Positions 3,842-35,728 of a DNA stretch of 64,000 nucleotides are shown piece by piece (positions within the stretch are counted from its first letter, which is position 1; the number at the start of each line of letters is the position of its first letter). The stretch covers positions 17,487 through 81,486 of the forward strand of contig NZ_JAPFDR010000010.1 of NCBI RefSeq assembly GCF_026168755.1, in the 5' to 3' direction. A program made the translations under genes and the position numbers. The stretch is from Clostridium sp. (GTDB lineage Bacteria; Bacillota; Clostridia; Clostridiales; Clostridiaceae). A model generated the notes under the pieces. That model worked only from the letters and a program-made list of their open reading frames with translations. It had not been told where the DNA came from and searched no databases.

Positions 3842-4121
3842 TTATACTAATTTTTGCTCAAATATATTATCTAAATTAACCTTTTTAATTCTATCATTAA
3901 TTTCCTCTTTATCAGTAGTATAAAGACCTAACTCTTGCATTCTCTTAAAATAGCTAGCACCAGCAAAAGTATATCTATCCTTTCTACCTTCCCTAGTTTC
4001 AACTTTTTCATTAGCAAAAGAAATTAAATCGCCTATTGCTATAGAAGAAGGTAAAATTAATAGTGGCATTCCCAGCATTAACCTTACAGCATTATGACCG
4101 GCTAAGCTACCTGTACATATA
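3842..4121 (-). CDS. Segment 3 (C-terminus) of the interrupted GidA/MnmG-related FAD oxidoreductase
   Basis: Reads (HTEA)ICTGSLAGHNAV..., the G-xx-EA-xxxG-xxAG-xNA motif of the GidA family; continues segment 2 in frame across the repeated core. The ORF-track N-terminus MQSGLKISQFSH is element DNA. Confidence 0.9.
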
Positions 4122-4133
4122 GCTTCAGTATGA
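4122..4133. repeat. Element B att core, left copy (GCTTCAGTATGA)
   Basis: Identical to 14329-14340; encodes H-T-E-A on the - strand. Confidence 0.92.
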
Positions 4134-4191
4134 TGACTAAACTGCGAAATTTTTAGTCCACTCTGCACATTTTATGACATCTCTAACATTT

Positions 4192-5790
4192 TTATATTTT
4201 ATTAGAGTATGTAATACTTATTGTATTACATTCACTACCCCAAATAATTTCTTGAAAAATATTCCTTAAAACTTTCTTTTTATCTTCATGATTCAAAAGA
4301 TCGAATGTGCTTTGAAAATTATTTATTTTATTTCTTATACTTTCAATATCTATTTCTTCATTTATGATAGTAGCATTTTTTTGTATTACACTATTTAATG
4401 ATTCTTCTAATTCTTTAATTTGAAAATTAATATCCCTAATTATTTGCTGATATTCTAAAATTATTTCTTTATCTAGATTAGAATCTAAAGTTTGTAATTG
4501 TAAAAACATATTTCCCTTTTTATTCTTTAGTTGTTGAATAGTATTGTTTATTTCATCTACTTCAGTATTATTATTTATTAAGCTATCATTTTTCAATATC
4601 TTATCCAACTCTTCTATTACTTTAGAAGAATCATATCCAACTACCTCTTCAACAATCCTTTTATCTACAATTGCTCCATTTAGATTTTTCATATTACAAA
4701 TTGTATTACTGCTATCTATTTTCATACTGCAAGCGTAATAATAAGGCCTTGTCCCATCTTTTAATTGACGAGCCTTAACTACATTCATTACAGATCCACA
4801 CTTACAACGTAATATACCACTTAAAAGTGCAACATTAGAATTACCTCTATTAGGTTTGTTATGTCTATTCTTAGATATTAACTCTTGTACCTTTATCCAA
4901 TTTTCAGCTGGTATTACACCATCATGCTTTGATGTTGCAGCAAGCTTTGGGTTATTTCTTGTTTTATCATTAGTCCTTTTGCAATAAGTTAAAATACCTT
5001 TTCCCTCTTCTTGTTTAGTTACAATGTAGCCTTGTTCTTCTAAAAACTCTGCAATATCCTCATTGCACATTGCATAAGTTGGATTAACAAGAACACTCAT
5101 AATTGAACTTTTATTAATATATCCACCCTTTTTGCCTCTAACCTTATTTTTAAGGAGATATTTATGAACCTTACTTACTGATTCAAATTCTAAATAAAGA
5201 TTAAACATCTGTATTACTTTATCTATTTCTTCCTCATTAATAACTAATGAACTATAATACCTAGTCTTACCATGTCCATCTATAAAAGATTCTCTTACAT
5301 GATTAAATCCCAAAGGAGCTTGACCTCCAAGCCACCTACCATCTCTAGCTAAAAGGTACATATTATCTGTAATACGTTGTATTAAATCATCTCTTTCAAA
5401 CTGAGATATACTAGCCAAAATAGTTAAAAACATAGTTCCCATTGGACTACTAGTATCTATTTTTTCTGTAACACTGTGTAATGCACATTTATATTCTTTA
5501 AAAATATCAATTGTCTCTAAAATATCTTTAACTTTTCTTCCAAGACGATTAAGTTGATAAACTATAACTGCATCTAACTCTTTTAGCTTAATCATATGAA
5601 TCATATTTTTAAATGCTGGTCTATCTGTATTTTTACCACTATAACCTTCATCTTCAAAGATTTTTATTTCTATATTTTTTTCTTCCATAAATATAAAGTT
5701 TATATAATCTTTACATCTATCGATCTGATTACCAATAGAGTCTCCCTTTCCTGTAAATTTTGACTTTCTCGAATATATAGCAATTTTCAT
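4192..5790 (-). CDS. Large serine recombinase (SpoIVCA/CisA-like), element B
   Basis: 532 aa; YSRKS catalytic motif, EDEGYSGKNTDRP, LNRLGR, recombinase domain GGQAPLGF, zinc ribbon CKC...YYYACS, coiled coil; intact. Confidence 0.95.
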   Translation of the reverse strand: MKIAIYSRKSKFTGKGDSIGNQIDRCKDYINFIFMEEKNIEIKIFEDEGYSGKNTDRPAFKNMIHMIKLKELDAVIVYQLNRLGRKVKDILETIDIFKEYKCALHSVTEKIDTSSPMGTMFLTILASISQFERDDLIQRITDNMYLLARDGRWLGGQAPLGFNHVRESFIDGHGKTRYYSSLVINEEEIDKVIQMFNLYLEFESVSKVHKYLLKNKVRGKKGGYINKSSIMSVLVNPTYAMCNEDIAEFLEEQGYIVTKQEEGKGILTYCKRTNDKTRNNPKLAATSKHDGVIPAENWIKVQELISKNRHNKPNRGNSNVALLSGILRCKCGSVMNVVKARQLKDGTRPYYYACSMKIDSSNTICNMKNLNGAIVDKRIVEEVVGYDSSKVIEELDKILKNDSLINNNTEVDEINNTIQQLKNKKGNMFLQLQTLDSNLDKEIILEYQQIIRDINFQIKELEESLNSVIQKNATIINEEIDIESIRNKINNFQSTFDLLNHEDKKKVLRNIFQEIIWGSECNTISITYSNKI

Positions 5791-5810
5791 TTTTGTATTA
5801 CTCCTTCTAA

Positions 5811-5966
5811 CTAATGTTTATATTCTTCGTCATTAAATTTTTCAATCAACAATCTACAAACTTCAACTCCATATACATTAATTAATGCTCTTGCTATTGA
5901 CTTATAGGCCTCTTCCCCTATTGATTCCTTATTTTCTTTAAGTATTATAATATTGCCTTTTTTCAA
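5811..5966 (-). CDS. 51-aa protein upstream of recombinase B; candidate recombination directionality factor
   Basis: Manual: GGAG RBS, TTG start, MKKGNIIILKENKESIGEEAYKSIARALINVYGVEVCRLLIEKFNDEEYKH*; stop lies 21 bp before the recombinase start. Confidence 0.6.
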   Translation of the reverse strand: MKKGNIIILKENKESIGEEAYKSIARALINVYGVEVCRLLIEKFNDEEYKH

Positions 5967-6002
5967 AACAATTTTTACTCCACAACTAAATTATTATTAT
6001 TA

Positions 6003-6031
6003 TATTGTATTTAAATTATTATTGAAATGTT
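6003..6031 (-). promoter_or_regulatory. Sigma-K-like promoter (one mismatch)
   Basis: AACA-N16-AATACAATA versus the consensus mACm-N16-CATAnnnTA; AT-rich context lowers specificity. Confidence 0.45.
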
Positions 6032-6040
6032 ACAACTTAA

Positions 6041-6086
6041 ATAAAAATGCAGAGTTAGATTTTTACTATCTTACTCTGCATTTTAT
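6041..6086 (-). terminator. Terminator after the Fic pseudogene
   Basis: aaaatgcagagt / actctgcatttt inverted repeat. Confidence 0.6.
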
Positions 6087-6120
6087 GGTTTTATAAATAT
6101 ATTATAATCTATTAACTTCT

Positions 6121-6828
6121 CTACTTCCAAAGATTAGAATACTCATTTTTAAAATCATCTAATGATAATATATATTTTTCTAAAGGTGAAAAGTCTAAAT
6201 CATTACATTCATTAAGTGATTTTCTATATAAATCTTCAGTATCCCATGATATAATTTTCACTTCTAAATTTTGTTCTAACATTTGTTTTAACATTATAAA
6301 CCTTCCTATTCTTCCATTACCATCTTGGAATGGGTGAATAAGTTCAAATCTATAATGAAATTAAGCTACATCTTTTAAAGTAATTTTATTTAATGAATAA
6401 TACCATTCTAAAAGTTCATCTAGTTTACTTTCAACTTCAAATGGTTGAGCTATCTTTGCATTTGTTCCTATAATCATATTGGGAATAACTTTATAAATTC
6501 CTGCATATCCTTTTGCATGCATACTAGTATTAAACATTAAACTTGCATGTATATTTTTAAGAAATTTATGATCTATCTTTTCTCCTAATGTTTCTATAAT
6601 TGTATCAAAAACATAACTTGAATTAACCGTTTCTTGTACATCATCTAAAGTATGCTTACCTTCAACAACATTTTTATCTAATAATAAAGCTAATGCTTCT
6701 GTTGTAAATGTACTTCCTGCAATTTTATTTGAATTATATAAAAAGTTATGTTTTAAAACAGCATATAATGAATTTTTAAAATCCTTAGTTTCATTTAACA
6801 CATCTATAAAAGTTTTTTCGTTAACCAT
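6121..6828 (-). pseudogene. Fic-domain protein with an in-frame nonsense codon
   Basis: Reads ...LKDVA*(TAA 6361-6363)FHYRFELIHPFQDGNGRIGR...NLWK*; the canonical Fic motif lies after the stop. Confidence 0.85.
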
Positions 6829-6914
6829 CCTATATCTTATACCCTTAACTTTCTTCTTATCCTTTATTATAACCTAAATAAATAAACTATTAAACATTGA
6901 AACTAATTCATGTA

Positions 6915-8474
6915 CTACATTTCTTGTATTATACAATCATGCTCTTTAGTTTTTGTGTTATAACAAATAGCAACTGCTAATATTTTTTTATCTGAATATT
7001 CCTTTTTAAACTTAGAAACATATTCTTTCTCTAAAATTTGATTTATCGCAACTTCAGGTAATGTATCTTTTTTAAGTTCAACTATAAAAGGTATATCATT
7101 CTTTCTTCTTGGATGAAATGTAAAATCTGCATAGCCCTTACCTGTTTTCTCTTCTCTTTCAACTCTATAGGTGTCTCTAGCGGAAAGGTATGCTAAAGTA
7201 AGAACACATGACAAACTATTTTCATCATTATATTGAAGTATCGGTATTTCAGAGTTATGAATATCATGCAGTATATTTTCAACAGTTTTTGTATCACCCT
7301 TAACTGTTGCTTTAAGCATTTTTTTAGAGTTTTCAACTATTTCTGAAACATATCCAAATGATTCATCTTTTAAGGCCTTTTGGAACTCTTTCATTAATTC
7401 TTTGTTAGGAATTTTTAAATATCCATTGTTATAAGATAAAAATCCTAGAATTATCATTGCTGAATATATTTCTTCCTTTGTTTTAGGTTCATCTTGACCT
7501 GCTCTAAACTCTTCATCTATATAGATATCAATTTCTTCTCTAGAAACCATTTCTATAACATCATCACGAATTTCTAAGGTATTGTACTTTAAATATTGTG
7601 TTACTTCATCCATTGCACCAGTATTTGTCCAATAACTTTCACAATTATTATTCATAAGTGCTTTAACAACAGACCTTGGATTATACACTTTAATTCCACT
7701 TGCTGTTGTATAGCCATTATACCAACTTTCGAGTTCTCCAAAATCCATTTTTTTATTTTTTAAACACAGCTCTTTAACTTCTTCTTCTGTAAAACCAAAG
7801 AACTCACCAAAGCTTCTATCTCTTAAAAATGTATATTCATCAAACATATTCAGTGCACTACCACTTGAATATTTCTTTATTGGAAGTACCCCTGTCATAT
7901 AGCAAAGAGCTACATAATTTTGATCTTTTAAAAGGTTTCTTAAAAACTCTAAAAAGTCATTTTGATGCTCAGCAAATAAATTATTACAAAAAATATAATC
8001 CCATTCATCAAAGATAAATATAAATTTCTTTTCTGATTTTTGTAAAATTCTTTTTAAGCTATCAGTTTCATTTAAATTATCATTATTAACTAATTCTATT
8101 ATTTCTCGCTTTAATTCTATAATTATGTTATTTATATAATCTTGATATGTTTGCATATTATCACATATCTCATTAAAAGAAATAGCTATTACATTGTATT
8201 TATTTAAATTTTCTTCGTAACTATCTGATTTACTAACTTTAAGGTTATCGAAGATTTCTTTGGCATCTACAGCATTTCCATAATAAGCTCCTAGCATATC
8301 TGCAACAGATGACTTTCCAAACCTTCTTGGTCTAGTAATACAAAGGTATTTGCTTTTTGTAGAAATCCTTTTATTAACCATGTCTATTATTTCTGATTTA
8401 TCAACAAAATACTCTTCTAAAAATAATTCTTTAAAATTTTCAAAGGGTCTAATGCTATTTAAATATATTGCCAC
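6915..8474 (-). CDS. AAA-ATPase-like plus PD-(D/E)XK nuclease (PDDEXK_9/DUF1703-type) protein, copy 1
   Basis: RPRRFGKS Walker A, IFDEWD Walker B, C-terminal REEKTGKGYADF...IVELK. Confidence 0.85.
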   Translation of the reverse strand: MAIYLNSIRPFENFKELFLEEYFVDKSEIIDMVNKRISTKSKYLCITRPRRFGKSSVADMLGAYYGNAVDAKEIFDNLKVSKSDSYEENLNKYNVIAISFNEICDNMQTYQDYINNIIIELKREIIELVNNDNLNETDSLKRILQKSEKKFIFIFDEWDYIFCNNLFAEHQNDFLEFLRNLLKDQNYVALCYMTGVLPIKKYSSGSALNMFDEYTFLRDRSFGEFFGFTEEEVKELCLKNKKMDFGELESWYNGYTTASGIKVYNPRSVVKALMNNNCESYWTNTGAMDEVTQYLKYNTLEIRDDVIEMVSREEIDIYIDEEFRAGQDEPKTKEEIYSAMIILGFLSYNNGYLKIPNKELMKEFQKALKDESFGYVSEIVENSKKMLKATVKGDTKTVENILHDIHNSEIPILQYNDENSLSCVLTLAYLSARDTYRVEREEKTGKGYADFTFHPRRKNDIPFIVELKKDTLPEVAINQILEKEYVSKFKKEYSDKKILAVAICYNTKTKEHDCIIQEM

Positions 8475-8583
8475 GACTTCACCACCTTATACATAGATTA
8501 TTAACGTAACTATTAATTAATTATAACATCTATTTTGATAACGAGGAATAGTTAGTAGTAGCTGTTTCTTGTGGTTGTTTAAC

Positions 8584-10257
8584 CTAAGACACTTTAATCA
8601 TACAATCTTTTTTATAAAAAGTAATTCCATACTTAACTATATTAGTATATCCTTCTTCTAATAATTCTGCATCATACTGTTTTTCTTCTATTTGATTTAA
8701 AGCCTCATCACATTTATCTGACATTTCTTTAAAGTTTTTTGCCACTTTAAGCTCTAAAATAACAGCTTCTCCTCGTCTGTTAGGATATTTAATAATAATA
8801 TCACTTCTACCTTTTCCTGTTTCTCTGTTTGATTTAATTATATATCTCTTAAGGTTAACTAAAGTTCCTAGTAAGAATCCATGATAAAAGTTTTCATATG
8901 CATCATAAAAACTTATACTTTCAGTTAAAAGCTCCACTAATTCATTCTCAAAAGTTAAAGTATCTCCACCTAACATAGCTTCATACATTTTAGATAAATC
9001 CTTAGATTTTATTCCTTCATCAAACCAATTTAAAATTGTATTTTTATAAATTAATCTTATTTCTTCATTTGGAATAGCTAAAGTAATAAGTATTTCATTA
9101 TCTTCATTCATCCTTACACTTACTTTCTTTAAGTATCCTGTAAAAAACAAGAAATTCCATAAATTATCCATAGATGAGTCAATATCTGCATATATTATAT
9201 CTTCATGAATAACCTTTTCTATTGTTTTACCTGCTACAAGTTCTTCAATTTGTGCCTTTGTATCATCATCTGCTTTTTCTATTAATGATTTTACAATACT
9301 ATTAGAGCTTGTATTGGCCCAATATGATATTGGTAGTGCATTAATAGTTCCTGTTAAATCATATATAAATTTATCAACACTCCATGGATTATAAACATTA
9401 CATTCACCAAAAAGATATCCATTGTACCATTTCTTTATAATATCTTCTTTATCTTCAAATCCATAATATTTAAGCATATCAATTACTTCATTTTCTGTAA
9501 AACCAAAATACTCATCATAGTGAGTGTTCAATATAGAAATAATATTTAAGTTATTTAATCCAGTAAAAATACTTTCTTTAGATATTCTCAAGCATCCTGT
9601 CATAATTGCAAACTCTAAATATTCATTTGTCTTTAATGCAGATTCAAAAAGTGATCTTAAAAAATCTATCATTTCATTGTAAAATCCTTTAAAATATGAG
9701 TTTTCTATTGGAACATCATATTCATCTATTAAAATAATAACCTTTTTATTATGGTACTTCTCAAGGCATCTTGATAAAAACTTTAATGCTGTTACCATAT
9801 TACCTTTATTATCTTTTTTATTAATAATATTTAAATAATCTTCTTTTTCATAATGAAGCTTTTCTGAATTTAATACGTAATCATGTCTTTTAAACTCTTC
9901 AATAATCTCATTTACAAGACAATCATATGCTAATTCGTAATTAGGTTGCTTGGCTGATTTTAAAGAAAGATTTATAACAGGATATTGTCCCATATGTGAT
10001 TTGTACTTTTCACCTTCATTCATTATTTTAAGTTTATTGAATAAATATGAATTATCATCCTTACCATTTTCAAAGAAGTATTGTATCATGCTAATATTTA
10101 AAGTCTTACCAAATCTTCTTGGCCTAGTAAATAAATTAACTTTTGCCTTACTATCTAGAATATCCTTTATTAGTAATGTTTTATCTACATAATAATAATT
10201 ATTTAATCTTATATCCTTAAAATTATCTACACCTATTGGTAATGGTTTTAAATTCAT
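8584..10257 (-). CDS. AAA-ATPase-like plus PD-(D/E)XK nuclease protein, copy 2
   Basis: LPIGVDNF, RPRRFGKT, LIDEYD, SNRETGKGRSDI...ILELK. Confidence 0.9.
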   Translation of the reverse strand: MNLKPLPIGVDNFKDIRLNNYYYVDKTLLIKDILDSKAKVNLFTRPRRFGKTLNISMIQYFFENGKDDNSYLFNKLKIMNEGEKYKSHMGQYPVINLSLKSAKQPNYELAYDCLVNEIIEEFKRHDYVLNSEKLHYEKEDYLNIINKKDNKGNMVTALKFLSRCLEKYHNKKVIILIDEYDVPIENSYFKGFYNEMIDFLRSLFESALKTNEYLEFAIMTGCLRISKESIFTGLNNLNIISILNTHYDEYFGFTENEVIDMLKYYGFEDKEDIIKKWYNGYLFGECNVYNPWSVDKFIYDLTGTINALPISYWANTSSNSIVKSLIEKADDDTKAQIEELVAGKTIEKVIHEDIIYADIDSSMDNLWNFLFFTGYLKKVSVRMNEDNEILITLAIPNEEIRLIYKNTILNWFDEGIKSKDLSKMYEAMLGGDTLTFENELVELLTESISFYDAYENFYHGFLLGTLVNLKRYIIKSNRETGKGRSDIIIKYPNRRGEAVILELKVAKNFKEMSDKCDEALNQIEEKQYDAELLEEGYTNIVKYGITFYKKDCMIKVS

Positions 10258-10334
10258 ATTTTCACTTCCTTTTATCTGTTTTTAAGCTATCTATTATTAT
10301 ATCCTAATTGTAAATTTTATTAAACCCACTATTT

Positions 10335-11384
10335 TTAATAAAGCATTGAGTATTTTTGCTTATATCTCAGCCATATATCTCCATTATCAACAAACTTTCC
10401 TATGGCATTATTCCTAGTTAAAAAGTATGGCAAGTGCCACTGAAAGTCATAAAAATAATCGCTATTATAAACATTGGCGTAATTATCAATTGCTTTTTTA
10501 ATTTCATCAAAGCTATATTTAGCCATAGCCTTATTTATACTGTCTATAATCTTAATATTTAAACTAACAACTTTACCTATTCTCTTACTATTCCAATGAT
10601 TAATTATATTTATATATATTTTATTATTTATATATATTTTATTATTTATATTATTATATATATTATTACGTGAAGTAGATACATTATCGTATCTACCTTG
10701 GTAATCACTAGATACATCAGTGTACCTACTTTCTTCATAACTAGATACATCAATGTACCTACCCTGTGTATTACCAGTTACATCAGCGTATCTATCTTCT
10801 TCATTTGTAGATACATCAGTGTATCCACTTTCTTCATAACTAGATACACCAGTGTAACTATTCTGTGCATTACTAGGTACATCATCGTATCTATCTTCTT
10901 CCATTATAGATACATCAGTATACCTACTTTCTTTATAACTAGGTACAGCAGTGTAACTATCCTGTACATTACTAGGCACATCAGCGTATCTACCTTCTTC
11001 CCTTGTAGATACATCAGTGTACCCACTTTCTTCATACCTAGATACATCAGTGTAACTATCCTGTGAATTACTAGGTACATCAGCGTATCTACTTTCTTCA
11101 GAATTATTAAATAATAAATAATCCTTTATTATCACATATATATTTTTCTTTCCATCTTTCTTTTCAATTCTTATATAATTCTTAGCTTGCAATGTTCTTA
11201 AAACACTATAAATAGACTTCTTATTCTTAATACAAAAATAATCTAATAAAGACTGTAATCCTACAGAAATAACATTACTATCTTCAAAATCAAATGCCTT
11301 TAATGCAATAAGCATATCTCTTTCTCTTCTGTTAATTTCTTTATCTAACATAAGCTTATTTAATATATCTAAATTATTCCCCAT
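10335..11384 (-). CDS. Putative replication initiator/replisome organiser with N-terminal HTH and internal tandem repeats
   Basis: N-terminal winged-HTH-like region (KSIYSVLRTLQAKNYI), 11-aa repeats, C-terminal IINHWN...EIKKAIDNY region resembling phage initiators. Confidence 0.6.
   Translation of the reverse strand: MGNNLDILNKLMLDKEINRRERDMLIALKAFDFEDSNVISVGLQSLLDYFCIKNKKSIYSVLRTLQAKNYIRIEKKDGKKNIYVIIKDYLLFNNSEESRYADVPSNSQDSYTDVSRYEESGYTDVSTREEGRYADVPSNVQDSYTAVPSYKESRYTDVSIMEEDRYDDVPSNAQNSYTGVSSYEESGYTDVSTNEEDRYADVTGNTQGRYIDVSSYEESRYTDVSSDYQGRYDNVSTSRNNIYNNINNKIYINNKIYINIINHWNSKRIGKVVSLNIKIIDSINKAMAKYSFDEIKKAIDNYANVYNSDYFYDFQWHLPYFLTRNNAIGKFVDNGDIWLRYKQKYSMLY
10676..11104. repeat. 13 tandem 33-bp units with 99-bp higher-order periodicity
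   Basis: Units start TAG(A/G)TACATCAG at 10676, 10709, 10742 ... 11072, counted by hand. Confidence 0.9.
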
Positions 11385-11552
11385 AACTTAACCCCACCTT
11401 TCTATACCACATAGAGATATAGTTTTTTTCTAACCTCATTTGGTATATTTCATAATTCATATCACCGATTCTATTTAATAATTAAATTTTACCATTGAAA
11501 TGTTAAGGAAATATAAATTTAAAAATTTTTTTTGTTAAATTCTTAAAATAAA

Positions 11553-11730
11553 GGCTCTGTTAGACTAAATTATTGATATACAACTCAAATCTATTATCTG
11601 TATTTACATATATTATTACAAACTTACCTCTTTTTCGAGAAGGTCTTGGCATTTTAAACCTACTCTTTTTATAATTCTCCTTGAAAGACTCAGAAACGAA
11701 TGTTTCGTCCATTTCTACTATACCCTAATT
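11553..11730 (-). mobile_element. IS1595-family remnant (terminal repeat plus transposase fragment)
   Basis: GGCTCTGTTAGAC end at 11553; degenerate GIVEMDETFVSESFK...MPRPSRKRGK, homologous to 14600-14838. Confidence 0.6.
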
Positions 11731-11990
11731 TATAATGAATTAATTTAAGATATTTAAAAGCTGAAAGCTAGATATAATCTAACTTTCAGCCCTCAAAATT
11801 TTTATACTTTCATATGCATTAAAAACAGAATATAGAAAACCAACCCTTTAACTCTAATTTTAAAGTTTAACTTCTTAATAGATTAAAATTATTAACCTTA
11901 ATATAATAGATTTAACAATAAGCTAATTATCATTTATATACTTTAACTAAATTATCCATTCAACTTATAATTAATATAAACAAATTATAA

Positions 11991-13622
11991 TCAATAAACT
12001 TTCTCTTTTATAATTTCCTTCTCTATAATATTCTTCTCCAATCCCTCAATATCTGAAACAAACGTCTTTATATATCTTTTAAAATAATTTCTCAACTCTT
12101 CATCACAAATATAAATATATGTACCTCTAATTCCTCTAGTTAATATTGTCTTGTAAATATTAATAATATACTTTTTTAATTCATTCTCATCTGTTACTGT
12201 TTTTTTACCATTTTTATCGTAATATTTTTCTTTAACTATCTGTATTTTATTATCTCTATATACTATTTCATTTCCTAAAATAACACCTGCATAATTTATA
12301 TCATATCCTTGTGTGGTATGAATACAGCCTACTTCTTTTATTGCATTCTGTGAATTAATCCAATCTTTAGGCTCAGAATTCCATTTAAATTTACTTTCTC
12401 CTATAACTATATCATATTCATCAGGATTTTTTTTACTCTTCCATTCCCAAGCATATCCTGCAATCATACGACAAAGACCATATTCTTTATCTTTATCTAT
12501 TATTTTTCTATGCATTTCATCTAAATTGTCAAATATGTATAATTCATATTCTCCAAAACTTCTAAATTCATCTTGATTTTCATTAATTATATTTTCAATA
12601 TAATTAATATAATCTTCTCCTGCTAAAACTCTCATTTGAGACGTAATTTTATGTTTTTCAAATGGTATTTCTTCAAATTTTTCTGGTCTTACATCTGATG
12701 GTTTTATTGATTGATTTTTATCATAACATAAAATCATATGCTTACTAGAAAGCCTTATCCAATCAAGTTGATCATTATTTTTATCAAGACCAAGCTTTCT
12801 ATTACAATCATCAAAAGACTTCACATTAGTTATATTTACTCTTCTGTTTAACCTATGTGCTTCGTCTACAATCAATATATCATAATCTTTACCAATAACA
12901 TCAGAAGGTCCTAATACCATACTTGCTTTTAAATTTTTAACATTTCTAAATACTTTTTTTAATGTTGTTCTTAATGATGTCATTGGAACTACTAGTCCAA
13001 CTTTTAAATTTTTACTTTCTTCTTTTTCGATTAAATACTTTAATAAATAAATAGCAACTATAGTTTTTCCTGTACCTGGCTCTCCTTGAATGAGATGATT
13101 GCTTTTTTTATTATTAATAATACTATCAACTATTGATTCTACAACTTCAAGTTGCTCAGATGTTAATGACTTATATGGTGAATATTTAAATAAATTACTA
13201 TTTCTAATTTCAAATAATCCTCTTACGACAATTTCTTTTTCTTTTAATTCACTCCAAATAATATCAAATTTCTTAATATATTTGTCCTTTTCATAATAAT
13301 TATGTTTTCTTAATCCACCATTACCATTTTGCAATAAGTATTTACCATCAGCAGCCATATGCTCAATTAATAAAGATTCTAGCTCTAAAGTTGCTGATTT
13401 ATTAAAATCATCATCTGCAACAATATCAATAGTATCTAATTTAATTCTATCCTTATTTTTTAAATGTTCTAAACTTCTATTATAAACTCTACTTGATTCT
13501 CCTACATAAGCTTCTTTATTATTTCTTATTATATAAACAACAGGCCAATTTACTCCATATTTATATCTTTTAATATTATCTAAAAATTCTTCTTTATAAG
13601 CGAAAGTTTTTACTAATCCCAT
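11991..13622 (-). CDS. GIY-YIG nuclease fused to a DUF2075 (Schlafen group 3-like) helicase
   Basis: VVYII...AYVGES, Walker A GEPGTGKT, IVDEAH, C-terminal VGCIHTTQGYD...YKTILTRG. Confidence 0.8.
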   Translation of the reverse strand: MGLVKTFAYKEEFLDNIKRYKYGVNWPVVYIIRNNKEAYVGESSRVYNRSLEHLKNKDRIKLDTIDIVADDDFNKSATLELESLLIEHMAADGKYLLQNGNGGLRKHNYYEKDKYIKKFDIIWSELKEKEIVVRGLFEIRNSNLFKYSPYKSLTSEQLEVVESIVDSIINNKKSNHLIQGEPGTGKTIVAIYLLKYLIEKEESKNLKVGLVVPMTSLRTTLKKVFRNVKNLKASMVLGPSDVIGKDYDILIVDEAHRLNRRVNITNVKSFDDCNRKLGLDKNNDQLDWIRLSSKHMILCYDKNQSIKPSDVRPEKFEEIPFEKHKITSQMRVLAGEDYINYIENIINENQDEFRSFGEYELYIFDNLDEMHRKIIDKDKEYGLCRMIAGYAWEWKSKKNPDEYDIVIGESKFKWNSEPKDWINSQNAIKEVGCIHTTQGYDINYAGVILGNEIVYRDNKIQIVKEKYYDKNGKKTVTDENELKKYIINIYKTILTRGIRGTYIYICDEELRNYFKRYIKTFVSDIEGLEKNIIEKEIIKEKVY

Positions 13623-13640
13623 ATTAACCCCTCATTTAAT

Positions 13641-13958
13641 TTATAGCTCAGTATATTTTTTACTTGATCCCTTAGCCTTTTCAACAGGATACTTTTTCTC
13701 ATTTTTATCCATTTTATTATTTATTATTTCCTCTATATTTACTCCCAAAGAATTTGCCATATGTATACAATAAATAATTACATCTGCTAACTCATTACAT
13801 ACTTCCTCTTTATCAAAATTATTATCCCATAAAAAATGCTCTAATAACTCTGAAGCTTCTATACTTATCGCTTTAGCTAAATTTTCAGGTTTATGAAACT
13901 GTCCCCAATCCCTATCATCTCTAAATTTTTTTATTCTATCTATTGTCTTATCCATCAT
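13641..13958 (-). CDS. MazG-like nucleotide pyrophosphohydrolase
   Basis: RDWGQFHKPENLAKAISIEASELLEHF...ELADV...KNEKKYP. Confidence 0.9.
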   Translation of the reverse strand: MMDKTIDRIKKFRDDRDWGQFHKPENLAKAISIEASELLEHFLWDNNFDKEEVCNELADVIIYCIHMANSLGVNIEEIINNKMDKNEKKYPVEKAKGSSKKYTEL

Positions 13959-14328
13959 ATATCTCCCTTAACTATTTTAATAATCTCCTATATATATTTA
14001 ATTATCATATCAATTTCAGCATTATAAAACTCAGACTTTTCTTCTGTATTCTTAAAACAACTTTTATCCATCATAATACCATAAAAATTTCTCCATTTTG
14101 AAAGAGTATATTCAGCTCTCTTTTTCATCCTAATCCATTGCTTTATAATAAATTATAGTGAATCAATTCTAATAGTATTATAAATATAATTTCTAAATAA
14201 TACAATAATATATAAATGCAATCTATTAAATAATAAATTATTAAATCTATATGAGTTAAATAAATTTTAATCATAAAAAATATATTTATTAGCTATAATA
14301 TGATTTTCTTCGCACTTTAGAATATCAT

Positions 14329-14541
14329 GCTTCAGTATGACCAACAAATAACCCTGCTTTTTCACCTGCACATAAAAGATTATCTACTCCAATAACCTTC
14401 ATATCATTAGCCCTTGGTGCCACAGATAAATATCTTATAGAATTACCCTTACTTCCTGCATAAGGATCAACATACTTAGCATATTCAAGACCTGGGATCT
14501 TTCTAAGCTTTTCAAGTGGATAATAAGTTGTCATAAGCTTT
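14329..14541 (-). CDS. Segment 2 (213-bp middle piece) of the interrupted oxidoreductase
   Basis: (HA)KLMTTYYPLEKLRKIPGLEYAKYVDPYAG...DNLLCAGEKAGLFVGHTEA; in frame with segments 1 and 3 across both cores. Confidence 0.92.
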
Positions 14542-14599
14542 GCATGTGCAGTGTGTACAAAAGTGCAACCTTTGCAACAATATTTGCCCCAATACGTTT

Positions 14600-14838
14600 A
14601 AATTTCCACCTCTATCAATTACTGTTGCTATACAAATCTGCTCATTACTTATACCACGTTTCTTAACTTGCTTACCTCTTTCTCGAGCAGCTCTCGGCAT
14701 TTTAAACCCACTCTTTTTATGATTACACTTGAAAGACTCAGTAACGAATGTTTCGTCCATCTCTACTATGCCATCTACATCACCAACACCCATAAATGCT
14801 CTTATACAATCAAGAACTTTATGTTGCAAGAACGACAC
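14600..14838 (-). pseudogene. IS1595-family transposase fragment
   Basis: GIVEMDETFVTESFK...KKRGISNEQICIATVIDR, typical of the IS1595 DDE region; truncated next to the att site. Confidence 0.8.
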
Positions 14839-15014
14839 ACATAACGTTGCTTACCTTTAAACTTTCCATTCTTCACTACAGAAGTAGATTAGCAATAAGG
14901 ACAACATTGACCCTTGCTAAATCTTGATTCTCTAAACTCTTCATTAAGAGTTACATTAGATATACCCATTTCCCCTATAAACATATTAAAAGGACCTACA
15001 TACGTAAGTCCTAA

Positions 15015-17330: not shown

Positions 17331-19031
17331 TTAATCTTTTATTTTTATTAGACAATCCTTTTTATAAAAGGCTATCCCATATTTGAAAATATTCTTATAA
17401 CCTTCACTTCTAAGCTCCATCTCATATTTCCTATCTTCTATTTGCTCTATAGCTTCATCTGCTTTTTTTTCTAAATCATCAATATAATTTGCTATTTTAA
17501 ACTCTATTACTATAGCAATTCCCCTTCTTGAAACTGACTTAATAAATAAATCACTTCTTCCGGTTCCACCTTCTCTATTAGATTTAACTATATATCCTTT
17601 CATATTAGAAAGAACTCCTGCTAAAAATCCATGATAGAAATTTTCATATGCATCGTTAAAGCTTATTGTATCTAAAAGTAAATTGTTTAATTCTACTTCA
17701 AAAAGCTCTGGTTCTTTATTTACTATAGCATTAAACATTTTTGTCATATCATAAAGTTTTATCTGTTCATTAAACCATTTAAGTATCTTAGTTCTAAAGA
17801 TATACTTTACTTCTAAGTTTGGTATTGCTAGCTCTACAAAGTTTTCTTGGGTATTCTCATCCATTCTTTCACTTATCTTTTTGAAATATCCTGTAAAGAA
17901 CATAAAGTTCCATAAGTTATCTAAATTATCATAAACATCTTCGTAGGTTATATCTTCATGTACTGGCTTTTCTATAGTTTTTCCTTCTATTAAAGCCTCT
18001 ATTTCTCCTTTTGTTATGTCATCTGCTCTTTCTATAAGACTTTTTACTATACTGTTTGAGCTAGTATTTGCCCAATATGATTTAGGTAATCTATTTATAT
18101 TAGCCTTTAAGTCATCAACATATTGCATTACACTCCAAGGATTATATACATTTGTTTCTCCAAATATATATCCATTGAACCACTGCTTTATAGTTTCATA
18201 CTTTTGTTGCATATTATAATCATCACAAATTTTTACAACCTCTTCATCTGTAAATCCAAAATGCTCTGCATATCTATCATCTAAAATTGATATGATTTTC
18301 AAGTTATTTAATCCAGTAAAAATACTTTCTTTTGAAATACGTAAGCAACCTGTAATTACTGAAAACTCTAATGATGGATTTGTTTTTAATGCTGATTCAA
18401 ATAGTGATCTTATAAAGCTTATCATTTCATTATAAAATCCCTCAAAAAATGCATTTTCTAAAGGTACATCATATTCATCTATTAAAATGATTACTTTTTC
18501 ATTGTGATATTTATTTAAGCAATTACTTAAAAATTTTAGTGCTGTAATATATAATGACATATCCTTATCATTATTTACAATTTTCATAAAATGTTCTTTC
18601 TCAGCTTTTAATACATCACTTTCTATTATATATTTATGTCTTTTAAATTCATTTGAAATTTCTTCTCTGATGCATTGAAATGCTAAATCCAAACTTCTTT
18701 GCTTTGCTGATTTAAGTGAAAGATTAATTACAGGATACTTACCTATATACTTAGTATATTTTTCACTTTCTCCCTTAATATTTAATCCTTCAAAAAGATA
18801 AGAGTTATCTATTTTCTCTCCAGTAAATTCATCTCTTCTATCTTCAAAATAATATTGAAGCATACTCATGTTTAATGTTTTACCAAACCTTCTTGGTCTA
18901 GTAAATAGATTTACTGCAGCTTTATTATCTAATAAATCCTTTATAAGAAGAGTTTTATCTACAAAATAATATCCCCTTGTTATTAACATTTCAAAATTAT
19001 CTATTCCTATTGGAAGTGGTTTTTGCTCCAT
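17331..19031 (-). CDS. AAA-ATPase-like plus PD-(D/E)XK nuclease protein, copy 3
   Basis: Visibly very similar to 8584-10257 (RPRRFGKT, LIDEYD, YWANTSSNSIVKSLIE, SNREGGTGRSD...IEFK). Confidence 0.9.
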   Translation of the reverse strand: MEQKPLPIGIDNFEMLITRGYYFVDKTLLIKDLLDNKAAVNLFTRPRRFGKTLNMSMLQYYFEDRRDEFTGEKIDNSYLFEGLNIKGESEKYTKYIGKYPVINLSLKSAKQRSLDLAFQCIREEISNEFKRHKYIIESDVLKAEKEHFMKIVNNDKDMSLYITALKFLSNCLNKYHNEKVIILIDEYDVPLENAFFEGFYNEMISFIRSLFESALKTNPSLEFSVITGCLRISKESIFTGLNNLKIISILDDRYAEHFGFTDEEVVKICDDYNMQQKYETIKQWFNGYIFGETNVYNPWSVMQYVDDLKANINRLPKSYWANTSSNSIVKSLIERADDITKGEIEALIEGKTIEKPVHEDITYEDVYDNLDNLWNFMFFTGYFKKISERMDENTQENFVELAIPNLEVKYIFRTKILKWFNEQIKLYDMTKMFNAIVNKEPELFEVELNNLLLDTISFNDAYENFYHGFLAGVLSNMKGYIVKSNREGGTGRSDLFIKSVSRRGIAIVIEFKIANYIDDLEKKADEAIEQIEDRKYEMELRSEGYKNIFKYGIAFYKKDCLIKIKD

Positions 19032-33257: not shown

Positions 33258-34895
33258 ATGAAGATTGCTATTTACTCAAGAAAGAGCAAATACACAGGAA
33301 AAGGTGATTCCATAGGTAACCAAATTCAAATGTGTAAGGACTACATTGAGACTAATTATAGAAATAAAGACCATGAATATATTATTTATGAAGACGAAGG
33401 ATTTTCTGGTGGAAATATCAACAGGCCAAAGTTCCAGAAGCTTCTTAATGATATTAAAAAAGAAAAATTTGATATTCTAATATGCTATAGACTTGATAGA
33501 ATTAGTAGAAATGTATCTGACTTCTCCACTACCTTAGATGAAATTCAAAGCTATGGAGTTGATTTTATAAGTGTTAAAGAACAATTTGATACAACTACTC
33601 CAATGGGAAGAGCTATGATATACATAGCATCAGTATTTGCCCAACTTGAACGTGAAACCATTGCTGAACGCGTAAGAGATAATATGATTGAACTAGCCAA
33701 GTCAGGAAAATGGTCTGGAGGTAGAACCCCTCTTGGCTTTGATAGTGAAGGTTCATCTTATATTGATGAAGAAGGAAATGAAAGAAGATTAGTTAAACTT
33801 GTGAAAAATGATGAGGAGCTAAAACTAGTTAATCTTATTTATGATACTTATCTAAGAGAAGGTTCATTGCATAAAACAGAAACTTACTTTGCTTCTCACA
33901 ACATTAAATCAAATAGAAATATCCTTCTTGAAAAAACATCATTAAAGGTAATCTTAAATAATCCTGTTTATGCAATAAGCTCTCCAGAACTTAAGAGGTG
34001 GCTTGAGGATGATGGATGGAATGTATATGGTGAACCTGATGGCAAACATAGCTATCTTAGTTATAATAAGACAAAGCACGTAACTAGAAATGGGAAATCA
34101 ATGAAAATACCAAACGATAAAGAAAATTGGATAGCTGCAATAAGTAATTGCCCTGGTATAATTGAAGCAGATAAATGGATTCAAGTACAAGAACAATTTA
34201 AAGGCAATAGAGGTTCATTCCCTAAAAAAGCAAGAACCCACGATGCAAAACTTGTTGGAAAAATATATTGTGCCCACTGTAATAACTACATGCAGGTGAT
34301 TCATGGAAATATTAAAAAAGATACAGGAAAAAGACAACACTACTACTCCTGCTCATTAAAAAAGAAATCCAAAAATGAATTATGCAAAAACAAAAATGTT
34401 AAGATAGATGCTGTAGAAGATTTATTACTCCAAGAGCTAGAAAGACTAGATAAAAATAAAAAAAGCTATATTCAAAGCCTTAAAAAGAAAAATAACTCAG
34501 TTAAGAAAAATAAAGATGTAAAACAAAAGCAGATATCAATACAAAAAGAAATTGATGCCAAACAAAAAATACTTAATAATTTAATAGATAAGTTAGCAAT
34601 TGCTGATGACCTAGATGATATAATAATACAAAGAATAAGATCCACTAAAAATGAAATGCAAGAGTTACAGAAACAACTAGATGAAATATCAAAAGAGATA
34701 GAAGATTCAAACTACAAGAAATTAGACCTAGACTTTATAAAAAGCTTACTAGAAAAGTGTGCTGATATAAGAGAACTAGATTCTAATGAACAAAGACTCC
34801 TAATAGGTGTTTTAGTAGATAAGATTCTATGGGATGGTAATACTCAAGATGTAACAGTATATTTCATTGGAAGTGGAGACGTAAAAAAAAAGTAG
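33258..34895 (+). CDS. Large serine recombinase (SpoIVCA/CisA-like), element A
   Basis: 545 aa; YSRKS, EDEGFSGGNINRP, RLDRISR, GGRTPLGF, zinc ribbon CAHC...YYSCS; intact with GAGGTG RBS. Confidence 0.95.
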   Translation: MKIAIYSRKSKYTGKGDSIGNQIQMCKDYIETNYRNKDHEYIIYEDEGFSGGNINRPKFQKLLNDIKKEKFDILICYRLDRISRNVSDFSTTLDEIQSYGVDFISVKEQFDTTTPMGRAMIYIASVFAQLERETIAERVRDNMIELAKSGKWSGGRTPLGFDSEGSSYIDEEGNERRLVKLVKNDEELKLVNLIYDTYLREGSLHKTETYFASHNIKSNRNILLEKTSLKVILNNPVYAISSPELKRWLEDDGWNVYGEPDGKHSYLSYNKTKHVTRNGKSMKIPNDKENWIAAISNCPGIIEADKWIQVQEQFKGNRGSFPKKARTHDAKLVGKIYCAHCNNYMQVIHGNIKKDTGKRQHYYSCSLKKKSKNELCKNKNVKIDAVEDLLLQELERLDKNKKSYIQSLKKKNNSVKKNKDVKQKQISIQKEIDAKQKILNNLIDKLAIADDLDDIIIQRIRSTKNEMQELQKQLDEISKEIEDSNYKKLDLDFIKSLLEKCADIRELDSNEQRLLIGVLVDKILWDGNTQDVTVYFIGSGDVKKK

Positions 34896-34943
34896 ACTCT
34901 CTACTTCCTGATTTATTCCAATTGTTGCAAATTCAACCACACA

Positions 34944-35728
34944 GCATGACCAGTATCAAGTAAAACTATATTTTCTGCAAACTCCTTAAGTGCATATTGT
35001 TGACATACCTTTGTACTAAGCTTACCATAATTTACATCTTCATCAGGAACCTTTAAAACAACTACCCCTGTTTTATCTAGTTGCTCTCTAATTTCATTAG
35101 ATAAACTTTCCTTTGCAAGCTTACAAGATCCTGAAAATGCTCCAAGTGCATCTCCATCTCTTTCACCTTGAATATCTGAAACTCCACATCTTGCACTTAT
35201 ACTTAATCTTGGTCCAAAAGCAGGGCAACGCAATATACACATAGAACATCCATTACCATATCTTAAACAATTCCCCATAGGTCCTGTTGAACCAGTTGTT
35301 TCAATAAACACATCACCTTTAACGTAAGTGTCATCACTTAATAAAATTCCCCTTATCTTATTGTTTTCAACATCAACATCTTTAACACGACTCTCTAAAT
35401 GAAGATGTATTCCTAATGATTTCAAATAATCTCTTACTACACCTTCAATAATATTAACATCATAAAGAGTTGCATGTTTATGACCAGGGAATTCTATATT
35501 AGCATGTCTTGCACATTTATCTGTTATTTCAATTAAGTCTCCTGCCCCTAAAGCTATAAGCTCTTCTGATGCAGTATAACGTCCATTATTTCTCATTATA
35601 CCACCAACATTACCAAGTCCAAGTAAAAGATCTGTTTTTTCATAGATATGGACATCTGCTCCAGCTTTCTTCGCTGTTATTGCGGCAGCACAGCCTGACC
35701 AACCTCCCCCAACAACTACTACCTTCAT
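34944..35728 (-). CDS. Segment 1 (N-terminus) of the interrupted GidA/MnmG-related FAD oxidoreductase
   Basis: VVVGGGWSGCAAA FAD-binding motif; native sequence ends at DTGHA (codon 262); the tail VWLNLQQLE* to 34913 is element DNA. Confidence 0.92.

Follow-up and report, generated by a model that had tools for sequence, protein, structure and literature searches.

Phage-type large serine integrases, such as Listeria A118/LI, phiC31, Bxb1 and TP901-1, are three-domain recombinases that act on a pseudo-palindromic phage attachment site (attP) of about 50 bp with half-sites of about 25 bp. They insert DNA conservatively, without target duplication, into a bacterial site (attB) whose identity to attP is limited to a short core, and a non-palindromic 2-bp crossover sets the polarity (PMC3783163). 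Large serine recombinases also serve gene-intervening elements of spore formers, among them gin of Bacillus cereus (GirC and GirX), skin (SpoIVCA), SPbeta (SprA and SprB), skinCd and yin, and they move or excise non-phage cassettes at a site in a gene or at its end in the case of staphylococcal CcrB and CcrC and Anabaena XisF. Here we analyze a 64,000-nucleotide stretch of the gut Clostridium sp. contig NZ_JAPFDR010000010.1 (the window), in which a gene for a 430-amino-acid GIDA-family flavin adenine dinucleotide (FAD) oxidoreductase is interrupted. The sequence makes it very probable that one of the interrupting segments, element B (10,207 bp), is an integrative island whose own large serine recombinase (4192-5790) inserted it at a single codon-level site of this gene, with strand exchange at the dinucleotide TC.

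Element B resembles the systems of A118/LI, phiC31, Bxb1 and TP901-1 in all of the properties listed above, and it differs from them in that it is not a phage, that its attB has no detectable dyad and that the 5-bp-shifted outer motif of the LI attB could not be made out in it. With the gin, skin and SPbeta group it shares a small non-phage element inside a protein-coding gene of a spore former, a large serine recombinase at one end with a very small open reading frame (ORF) beside it, and junctions at which inverted repeats flank a short direct repeat (PMC5595907, PMC5499854, PMC5025042). Unlike in that group, the target here is a flavoprotein gene and no known sporulation gene, and it carries at least three recombinase sites, two of them occupied in this genome. 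The CcrB/CcrC and XisF models are the best NCBIfam matches of the recombinase, all partial (9.8e-41, 8.4e-32 and 3.9e-29). Their scores of 140, 110 and 102 bits are far under the curated cut-offs of 900, 900 and 375 bits, and the recombinase is therefore not a member of these families. The mechanism is textbook serine integration, and our findings leave the known serine-integrase mechanism unchanged.

Element B and the interrupted flavoprotein gene

Two plus-strand copies of the 12-bp core GCTTCAGTATGA bound element B, one at the recombinase-proximal junction (4122-4133; attR in the coding direction of the target gene) and one at the recombinase-distal junction (14329-14340). They are 10,207 bp apart, and there is no third copy on either strand of the window. 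Taken alone, a 12-bp repeat is weak evidence and not significant, because the AT-rich window (27% G+C) holds 1279 distinct direct repeat pairs of at least 12 bp, and it was dropped as a stand-alone signal for this reason. Of the 12-mers within 100 bp past the recombinase stop codon, on the other hand, only GCTTCAGTATGA has a second copy in the window.

The boundaries are carried by the empty site. Deletion of 4122-14328 joins two minus-strand ORF fragments in frame, so that ...GLFVGHTEA continues directly into ICTGSLAGHNAV..., and the fusion encodes the C-terminal portion of a FAD protein of the GIDA family (PF01134). In 12 genomes of the same genus the 430-amino-acid gene is uninterrupted and colinear without gaps through the core, and the closest intact gene, in genome G003, is identical over at least 12 bp on either side of the core. 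The initial annotation had proposed a 12-bp core bounding an element of 10,207 bp; both copies, their exact spacing and the match of the empty site to the intact gene of relatives bear this out. The insertion is conservative, as the flanks connected by a single core copy reproduce the empty site, and it lies at the codons for G-H-T-E-A of the target gene. The two 12-bp copies are the stretch where attP of the element and chromosomal attB chanced to be identical.

The target gene lies on the minus strand in three pieces separated by two inserts, element B and a second element, A. Its 5' fragment is found beyond element A (34943-35728; blastn positions 2-801 of the G003 query correspond to 35742-34943, and Pfam GIDA positions 1-210 are matched), the middle fragment between elements B and A (14329-14552; query 790-1013 corresponds to 14552-14329), and the 3' fragment, with the C-terminal approximately 96 codons and the stop, beyond element B (3842-4133; query 1002-1293 corresponds to 4133-3842, GIDA positions 305-389). 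The gene upstream of it encodes a sulfide/dihydroorotate-dehydrogenase-like FAD/NAD-binding protein, and stop and start codons of the two genes overlap.

The recombinase is an intact minus-strand ORF of 532 amino acids, which ends 58 bp from the left core copy. It matches the Pfam families Resolvase (PF00239, 1.9e-34, residues 3-153, with profile positions 1-145 covered over their full length), Recombinase (PF07508, 9.5e-12, residues 186-308) and Zn_ribbon_recom (PF13408, 3.9e-10, residues 322-383), as well as the integrase family phrog_95 (4.8e-99). Its N terminus, MKIAIYSRKS, has R8 and S10 in an R-x-S motif, which we take to correspond to gamma-delta resolvase numbering with S10 as the catalytic serine. 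The closest solved sequence is the catalytic domain of TP901-1 integrase (3.5e-22), and any solved protein is only distantly related.

A search for relatives of the recombinase in 401 genomes from the family gave two close ones, with 96% identity in G346 (uncultured Clostridium sp. UMGS990) and 87% in G403 (Clostridium disporicum 2789STDY5834856), and the next tier is at 35-42%. The initial annotation would have counted different element boundaries in relatives as a refutation; the opposite is seen, with the gene of G403 broken at the same base position and flanked by homologous arms. In G403 the recombinase, arms and boundaries agree with those of element B, but the cargo differs and the A site is unoccupied. 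The recombinase and two half-sites therefore form a conserved module, and element B is independent of element A.

Integration would proceed by binding of recombinase dimers to attP and attB, synapsis of the two complexes and cleavage of all four strands with a 2-bp TC/GA stagger; one half would then rotate by 180 degrees and the strands would be religated to give hybrid sites. The hybrid sites of the integrated element are at 4111-4148 and 14309-14352. Excision should require a directionality factor. The only candidate for this role is a minus-strand ORF of 51 amino acids (5811-5966), 21 bp upstream of the recombinase, which gave no match to Pfam or PHROG families. G346 has this ORF in the same place, ahead of the recombinase, and G403 has a much diverged form of it (approximately 45% identity, estimated by eye from the translations). 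A sigma-K-like motif, AC-N17-CATAnnnTA, precedes it, exact in G403 and with one mismatch here. Just upstream of this motif and the ORF, a strong terminator-like hairpin (AAAATGCAGAGT...ACTCTGCATTTT) is located in 5970-6100, so that the 51-amino-acid ORF and the recombinase would be transcribed as a unit of their own.

Attachment sites and the probable crossover dinucleotide

The predicted attP of approximately 47 bp reads TTCGCACTTTAGAATATCATGCT-TC-AGTATGATGACTAAACTGCGAA and consists of two putative recombinase half-sites on the plus strand, the recombinase-proximal AGTATGATGACTAAACTGCGAA (4127-4148) and the recombinase-distal TTCGCACTTTAGAATATCATGCT (14309-14331). Joining 14309-14340 to 4134-4148 gives the circle junction TTCGCACTTTAGAATATCAT-GCTTCAGTATGA-TGACTAAACTGCGAA, exactly as had been predicted; the corresponding junction words are ATCATGCTTCAGTATGATGAC for attP and GGTCATACTGAAGCTATATG for attB. 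In each half-site an inner block, AGYATGAT, adjoins the centre, and an outer block, CTAAA-S-TGCGAA, lies about 12-23 bp away from it. The arms proposed earlier, AGCATGATATT-CTAAA-GTGCGAA and AGTATGATGA-CTAAA-CTGCGAA when read outward, are correct in sequence, and so is their 1-bp spacing difference: the outer block is TTCGCAGTTTAG at -22..-11 on the recombinase side of TC and CTAAAGTGCGAA at +12..+23 on the other side. The same 1-bp offset is found in the attP arms of C. disporicum.

The dyad, described beforehand as what a serine integrase attP should look like, stands out from the background. The attP of element B has a dyad score of 11, a value that 0.26% of 8000 randomly chosen window positions attain. 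That of G403 scores 17 (0.04% of background) and is perfectly palindromic over 8+8 positions about the same centre (ATCATGCA-GA-TGCATGAT). Ten of the 12 attPs reconstructed at the B site, our own included, are at or below 5% of background. In the 3.29-Mb assembly, the motif of the arms, TTCGCA[CG]TTTAG or its complement, is found at three places, and two of them are the element ends, inverted relative to each other. In the class of elements inserted in the same orientation, all recombinase-proximal arms have T[TC]GCA[GA]TTT at -22..-13. Elements of the opposite orientation have TGTCAA, TAGCAA or TATCAA at this distance, mostly followed by TTTAG (loci L030-L033), with AACTAG in L028 and AGTTAT in L036 in its place. 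The structure of LI integrase bound to attP shows the zinc-ribbon domain reading out positions 16-24 of the 25-bp half-site (PMC3783163), and by analogy the outer attP block is most likely the zinc-ribbon motif.

Comparison of elements at the same site points to the position of the crossover. Serine recombinases require an identical 2-bp overhang in both partner sites (PMC3783163), and at the B site 12 elements, our own and eleven in other genomes, could be followed across both junctions. Their blocks of attL/attR identity span 3-13 bp on the coding strand. The block is TCATACTGAAGC for our own element, CAGA in G403 and G083, AGAA in G084, GAAGC in G320 and G399, CAGAAGCT in G008, CTGAAGC in G349 and CAGAAGCAATTTG in G004. 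It is TGA in G035, where the intact gene of the congener G033 bears out the attB reading, and in G301 and G354 identity stops right after GA. The sole dinucleotide common to all 12 blocks is GA on the coding strand, that is, TC on the plus strand of the window (4125-4126 in core copy 1 and 14332-14333 in copy 2). The central TC in the initial annotation came from symmetry, and this comparative evidence arrives at the same dinucleotide.

B-site elements are found in both orientations relative to the gene, and the recombinase tree shows flips within tight clades. In this tree the near-identical recombinases of G083 and G163 group as sisters, with very short branches. Both attP arms of one element are homologous to those of the other, but on the recombinase strand the centre is A-GA in G083 and T-TC in G163, and the two elements lie in opposite orientation within the same attB. 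This is what would be predicted from the rule that the central dinucleotide alone sets polarity. The swap of the centre together with the inverted insertion independently marks this dinucleotide as the crossover, and the pair is a natural counterpart of laboratory experiments in which central dinucleotides are swapped.

Cargo, the G346 copy and element A

All of the cargo genes of element B are on the minus strand. Next to the 51-amino-acid ORF is a Fic-like defence-candidate gene of the PDC-S04 type (6121-6828), split into two ORFs (6361-6828 and 6121-6294) that match PADLOC profile PDLC04837 with 1.2e-67 (profile positions 3-155) and 5.4e-14 (179-232). It is followed by two paralogous genes combining AAA-ATPase_like and PD-(D/E)XK (PDDEXK_9) domains (6915-8474 and 8584-10257, together 6915-10257), a gene for a 349-amino-acid protein with an internal tandem-repeat region and no family match (10335-11384), and a transposase-like remnant with the translation MDETFVSESFKENYKKSRFKMPRP... 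(11560-11712). Toward the distal end are a GIY-YIG / Schlafen-group-3 (DUF2075) helicase (11991-13622; PF09848, 8.5e-68) and a MazG-like pyrophosphatase (13641-13958; PF12643, 1.2e-22), a region (11991-13958) that also gave weak Nhi and PDC matches. PHROGs families found in element B were limited to integrase, helicase-type, pyrophosphatase and unknown-function families, with no phage structural, packaging or lysis genes, and no conjugation-type families were among the cargo matches in the Pfam, PADLOC and PHROGs scans. The cargo is non-phage, and the capsid, tail, terminase or lysis genes of a temperate prophage are not among the PHROGs matches.

The transposase-like remnant resembles a frame at 14512-14838. 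Neither frame has a Pfam match, and we presume both to be of the IS1595 type. The second one extends over 14512-15000 with frameshifts and stops, at the left end of element A and directly beside the target-gene fragment.

G346 carries the same element with the same recombinase-side junction. Identity is 95.6-99% over the element and 94-99% over the flank. A stretch of 2.5 kb, 6903-9408 of the window, is missing from its copy. It takes in an AAA-ATPase/PD-(D/E)XK gene together with a portion of the paralog, and either a deletion between the two paralogs in G346 or a duplication here could account for the difference. The distal end of the element was not found in G346, where the contig stops inside the repeat gene. 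Neither G346 nor G403 gave a match to the recombinase-distal arm when up to three mismatches were allowed, and the arm of G403, which has four differences, was located via the target gene.

Element A (approximately 20.4 kb, about 14553-34942) has its own large serine recombinase (33258-34895, plus strand) and interrupts the target gene at a point 212 bp upstream of the B site. The repeat at its junctions (14541-14552 and 34943-34954) is imperfect, TGCATGTGCAGT versus AGCATGACCAGT, with GCATG..CAGT shared. On the coding strand the A site ACTGGTCATGCTAAA resembles the B site GGTCATACTGAAGC, and GGTCATRCT is present in both. Element A contains a third gene with AAA-ATPase_like and PDDEXK_9 domains (17331-19031), 69% identical in DNA to part of the G346 copy of the element B paralog; elements A and B therefore share cargo types.

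Alternative readings and the target gene as a hotspot

Several observations weigh against the reading of element B as an island placed by its own recombinase at TC. The crossover argument presumes one cutting register relative to the target gene for all members of the recombinase family, and our own clade is on a long branch (1.47). Within this clade, comparison with G403 narrows the crossover to CA, AG or GA, and it is the dyad centre that then picks GA. By the score used for attP, dyad symmetry is absent from attB (scores of 1-3 versus a background mean of 3). The LI integrase model has the outer motif of attB moved about 5 bp towards the centre relative to attP (PMC3783163); by eye, no such shifted motif is visible in attB here, with 2/10 and 4/12 matches in our own half-sites, where coding constraint obscures motifs. 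In the whole assembly there is no copy of attP or attB with up to three mismatches, only attL and attR. Divergence from G346 is alike for element and flank, which suggests long vertical residence, and the element may be immobile now. The cargo also shows decay, in the split PDC-S04 gene and the transposase-like remnant.

The target gene is hit recurrently by related recombinases. A target-gene fragment lies downstream of the recombinase stop codon in 20 of the 29 loci with recombinase relatives, mostly within about 30-100 bp. Break points cluster at three positions, around residue 88, around residues 264-267 (the A site here) and at residue 337 (the B site here). A fourth site, at residue 353 in the tblastn alignment of L041, was rejected as the B site in opposite orientation, the alignment having run on into the element. 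The target gene was found in 114 of 123 scored genomes of the genus, and a manual count from the listing gives approximately 13-15 species representatives interrupted at the B site and approximately 20 at the A site. Both sites are occupied in G301, G349 and G353, as here, and many genomes have one site occupied only. B-site elements are approximately 6.5 kb in G301, 4.6 kb in G349 and 5.2 kb in G353, and others at the same site measure 42-80 kb.

The A and B sites are both at a Gly-His codon pair. Insertions at residue 88 were found in loci L040, L042-L044, L046, L048 and L050, with recombinases 35-38% identical to that of element B and with GTCGCAAT or TATCGCAAT in the arms at a similar distance from the junction. 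The intact G003 gene encodes P-G-H-K-H-A (GGTCATAAACATGCA) at this position. Codons right after the junction vary among the residue-88 loci (QAHA, HAHA, HVHA, QGHA), and the Gly-His pair is shown directly only in the opposite-orientation locus L042 (PGHEHA). In the relative G007 (C75, L001, and C64), a single contig has several partial copies of the target-gene 3' end, which cover query residues 2-182, 122-182 and 159-182; this suggests tandem or nested elements, or duplicated gene ends.

One possibility, which we hold to be tentative, is that element B, with the same attachment sites, is a gene-intervening element similar to skin, SPbeta or gin. It would be fixed in the germ line, and the mother cell would excise elements B and A during sporulation by means of the recombinase and a small, sigma-K-driven directionality factor, thereby rebuilding the gene. 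The host belongs to Clostridium, a genus that forms endospores. This reading is also in line with the frequent interruption of an otherwise conserved gene, of which there is no intact copy or paralog elsewhere in the assembly (three fragments only), with cargo that gave no phage structural or conjugation-type matches and with the apparent vertical inheritance of the element with G346. The B-site elements of about 4.6, 5.2 and 6.5 kb are too small for a phage genome, as is gin, and the 51-amino-acid ORF with its sigma-K-like motif, also present in G346 and G403, is comparable in size to GirX with 42 amino acids (PMC5595907). However, nothing ties the target gene to sporulation or to the mother cell: NCBIfam gives it no specific assignment, and inspection by eye of the region upstream of its operon gave no clear promoter of the sigma-E or sigma-K type. 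A sigma-K-like motif also comes cheaply in DNA of 27% G+C, with an estimated chance of roughly 1% per 100 bp, conservation of the 51-amino-acid ORF is not visible beyond the 87% relative, and the 42-80 kb elements at the same site look by their size like ordinary prophages or islands.

Another possibility, which we consider rather unlikely, is that the boundaries are right and element B is a fixed relic, with a dead recombinase or dead sites and the gene permanently inactivated in this lineage. The decay of the cargo, the assembly without attP or attB and the sharing of the element with the sister species G346 at about flank-level divergence are in favor of this explanation. However, the recombinase is encoded by a full-length ORF with no domain missing and shares 96% identity with its G346 counterpart, the motif of the family is preserved in both half-sites, and the 51-amino-acid ORF is intact. 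The similar divergence of element and flank in G346 fits either a fixed relic or an intervening element of the skin/gin type (PMC5595907).

A chance 12-bp match within a different unit, such as a single composite of 4.1-34.9 kb, is extremely improbable: 12-bp repeats are abundant (1279 pairs) and two recombinases in convergent positions bracket the whole 31-kb region, but a composite of A and B is ruled out by the 224 bp between the elements (14329-14552), which are target gene in correct order and frame, by the occurrence of B with an empty A site in G403, of separate A and B elements in G301, G349 and G353 and of one-site insertions in many genomes, and by B junctions that agree at base level across 12 elements.

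The preferred reading, an island integrated by its own recombinase, can be placed in a broader picture, which is doubtful as a whole. The gene could be a dedicated landing pad for one diversifying recombinase clade across Clostridiaceae and neighbouring families, with at least three attB sites at Gly-His codons (GGN-CAY) and an attP outer motif (TCGCAA / TTGCGA type) that is kept while the target shifts. Small, cargo-poor elements, A and B among them, might then be skin- or gin-like, excised in the mother cell by the recombinase and a tiny sigma-K-driven directionality factor, so that the gene would be silent in vegetative cells and rebuilt only in sporulation.

For an uncharacterised large serine recombinase, this locus provides base-accurate attP, attB, attL and attR and a well-supported crossover dinucleotide. 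Eleven further sets of recombinase and sites, with both junctions and the same attB, are material for studies of specificity and orthogonality. One conserved Clostridium gene is a three-site hotspot for a recombinase clade and is interrupted in a sizeable minority of the species of the genus, which raises the question of developmentally excised intervening elements.

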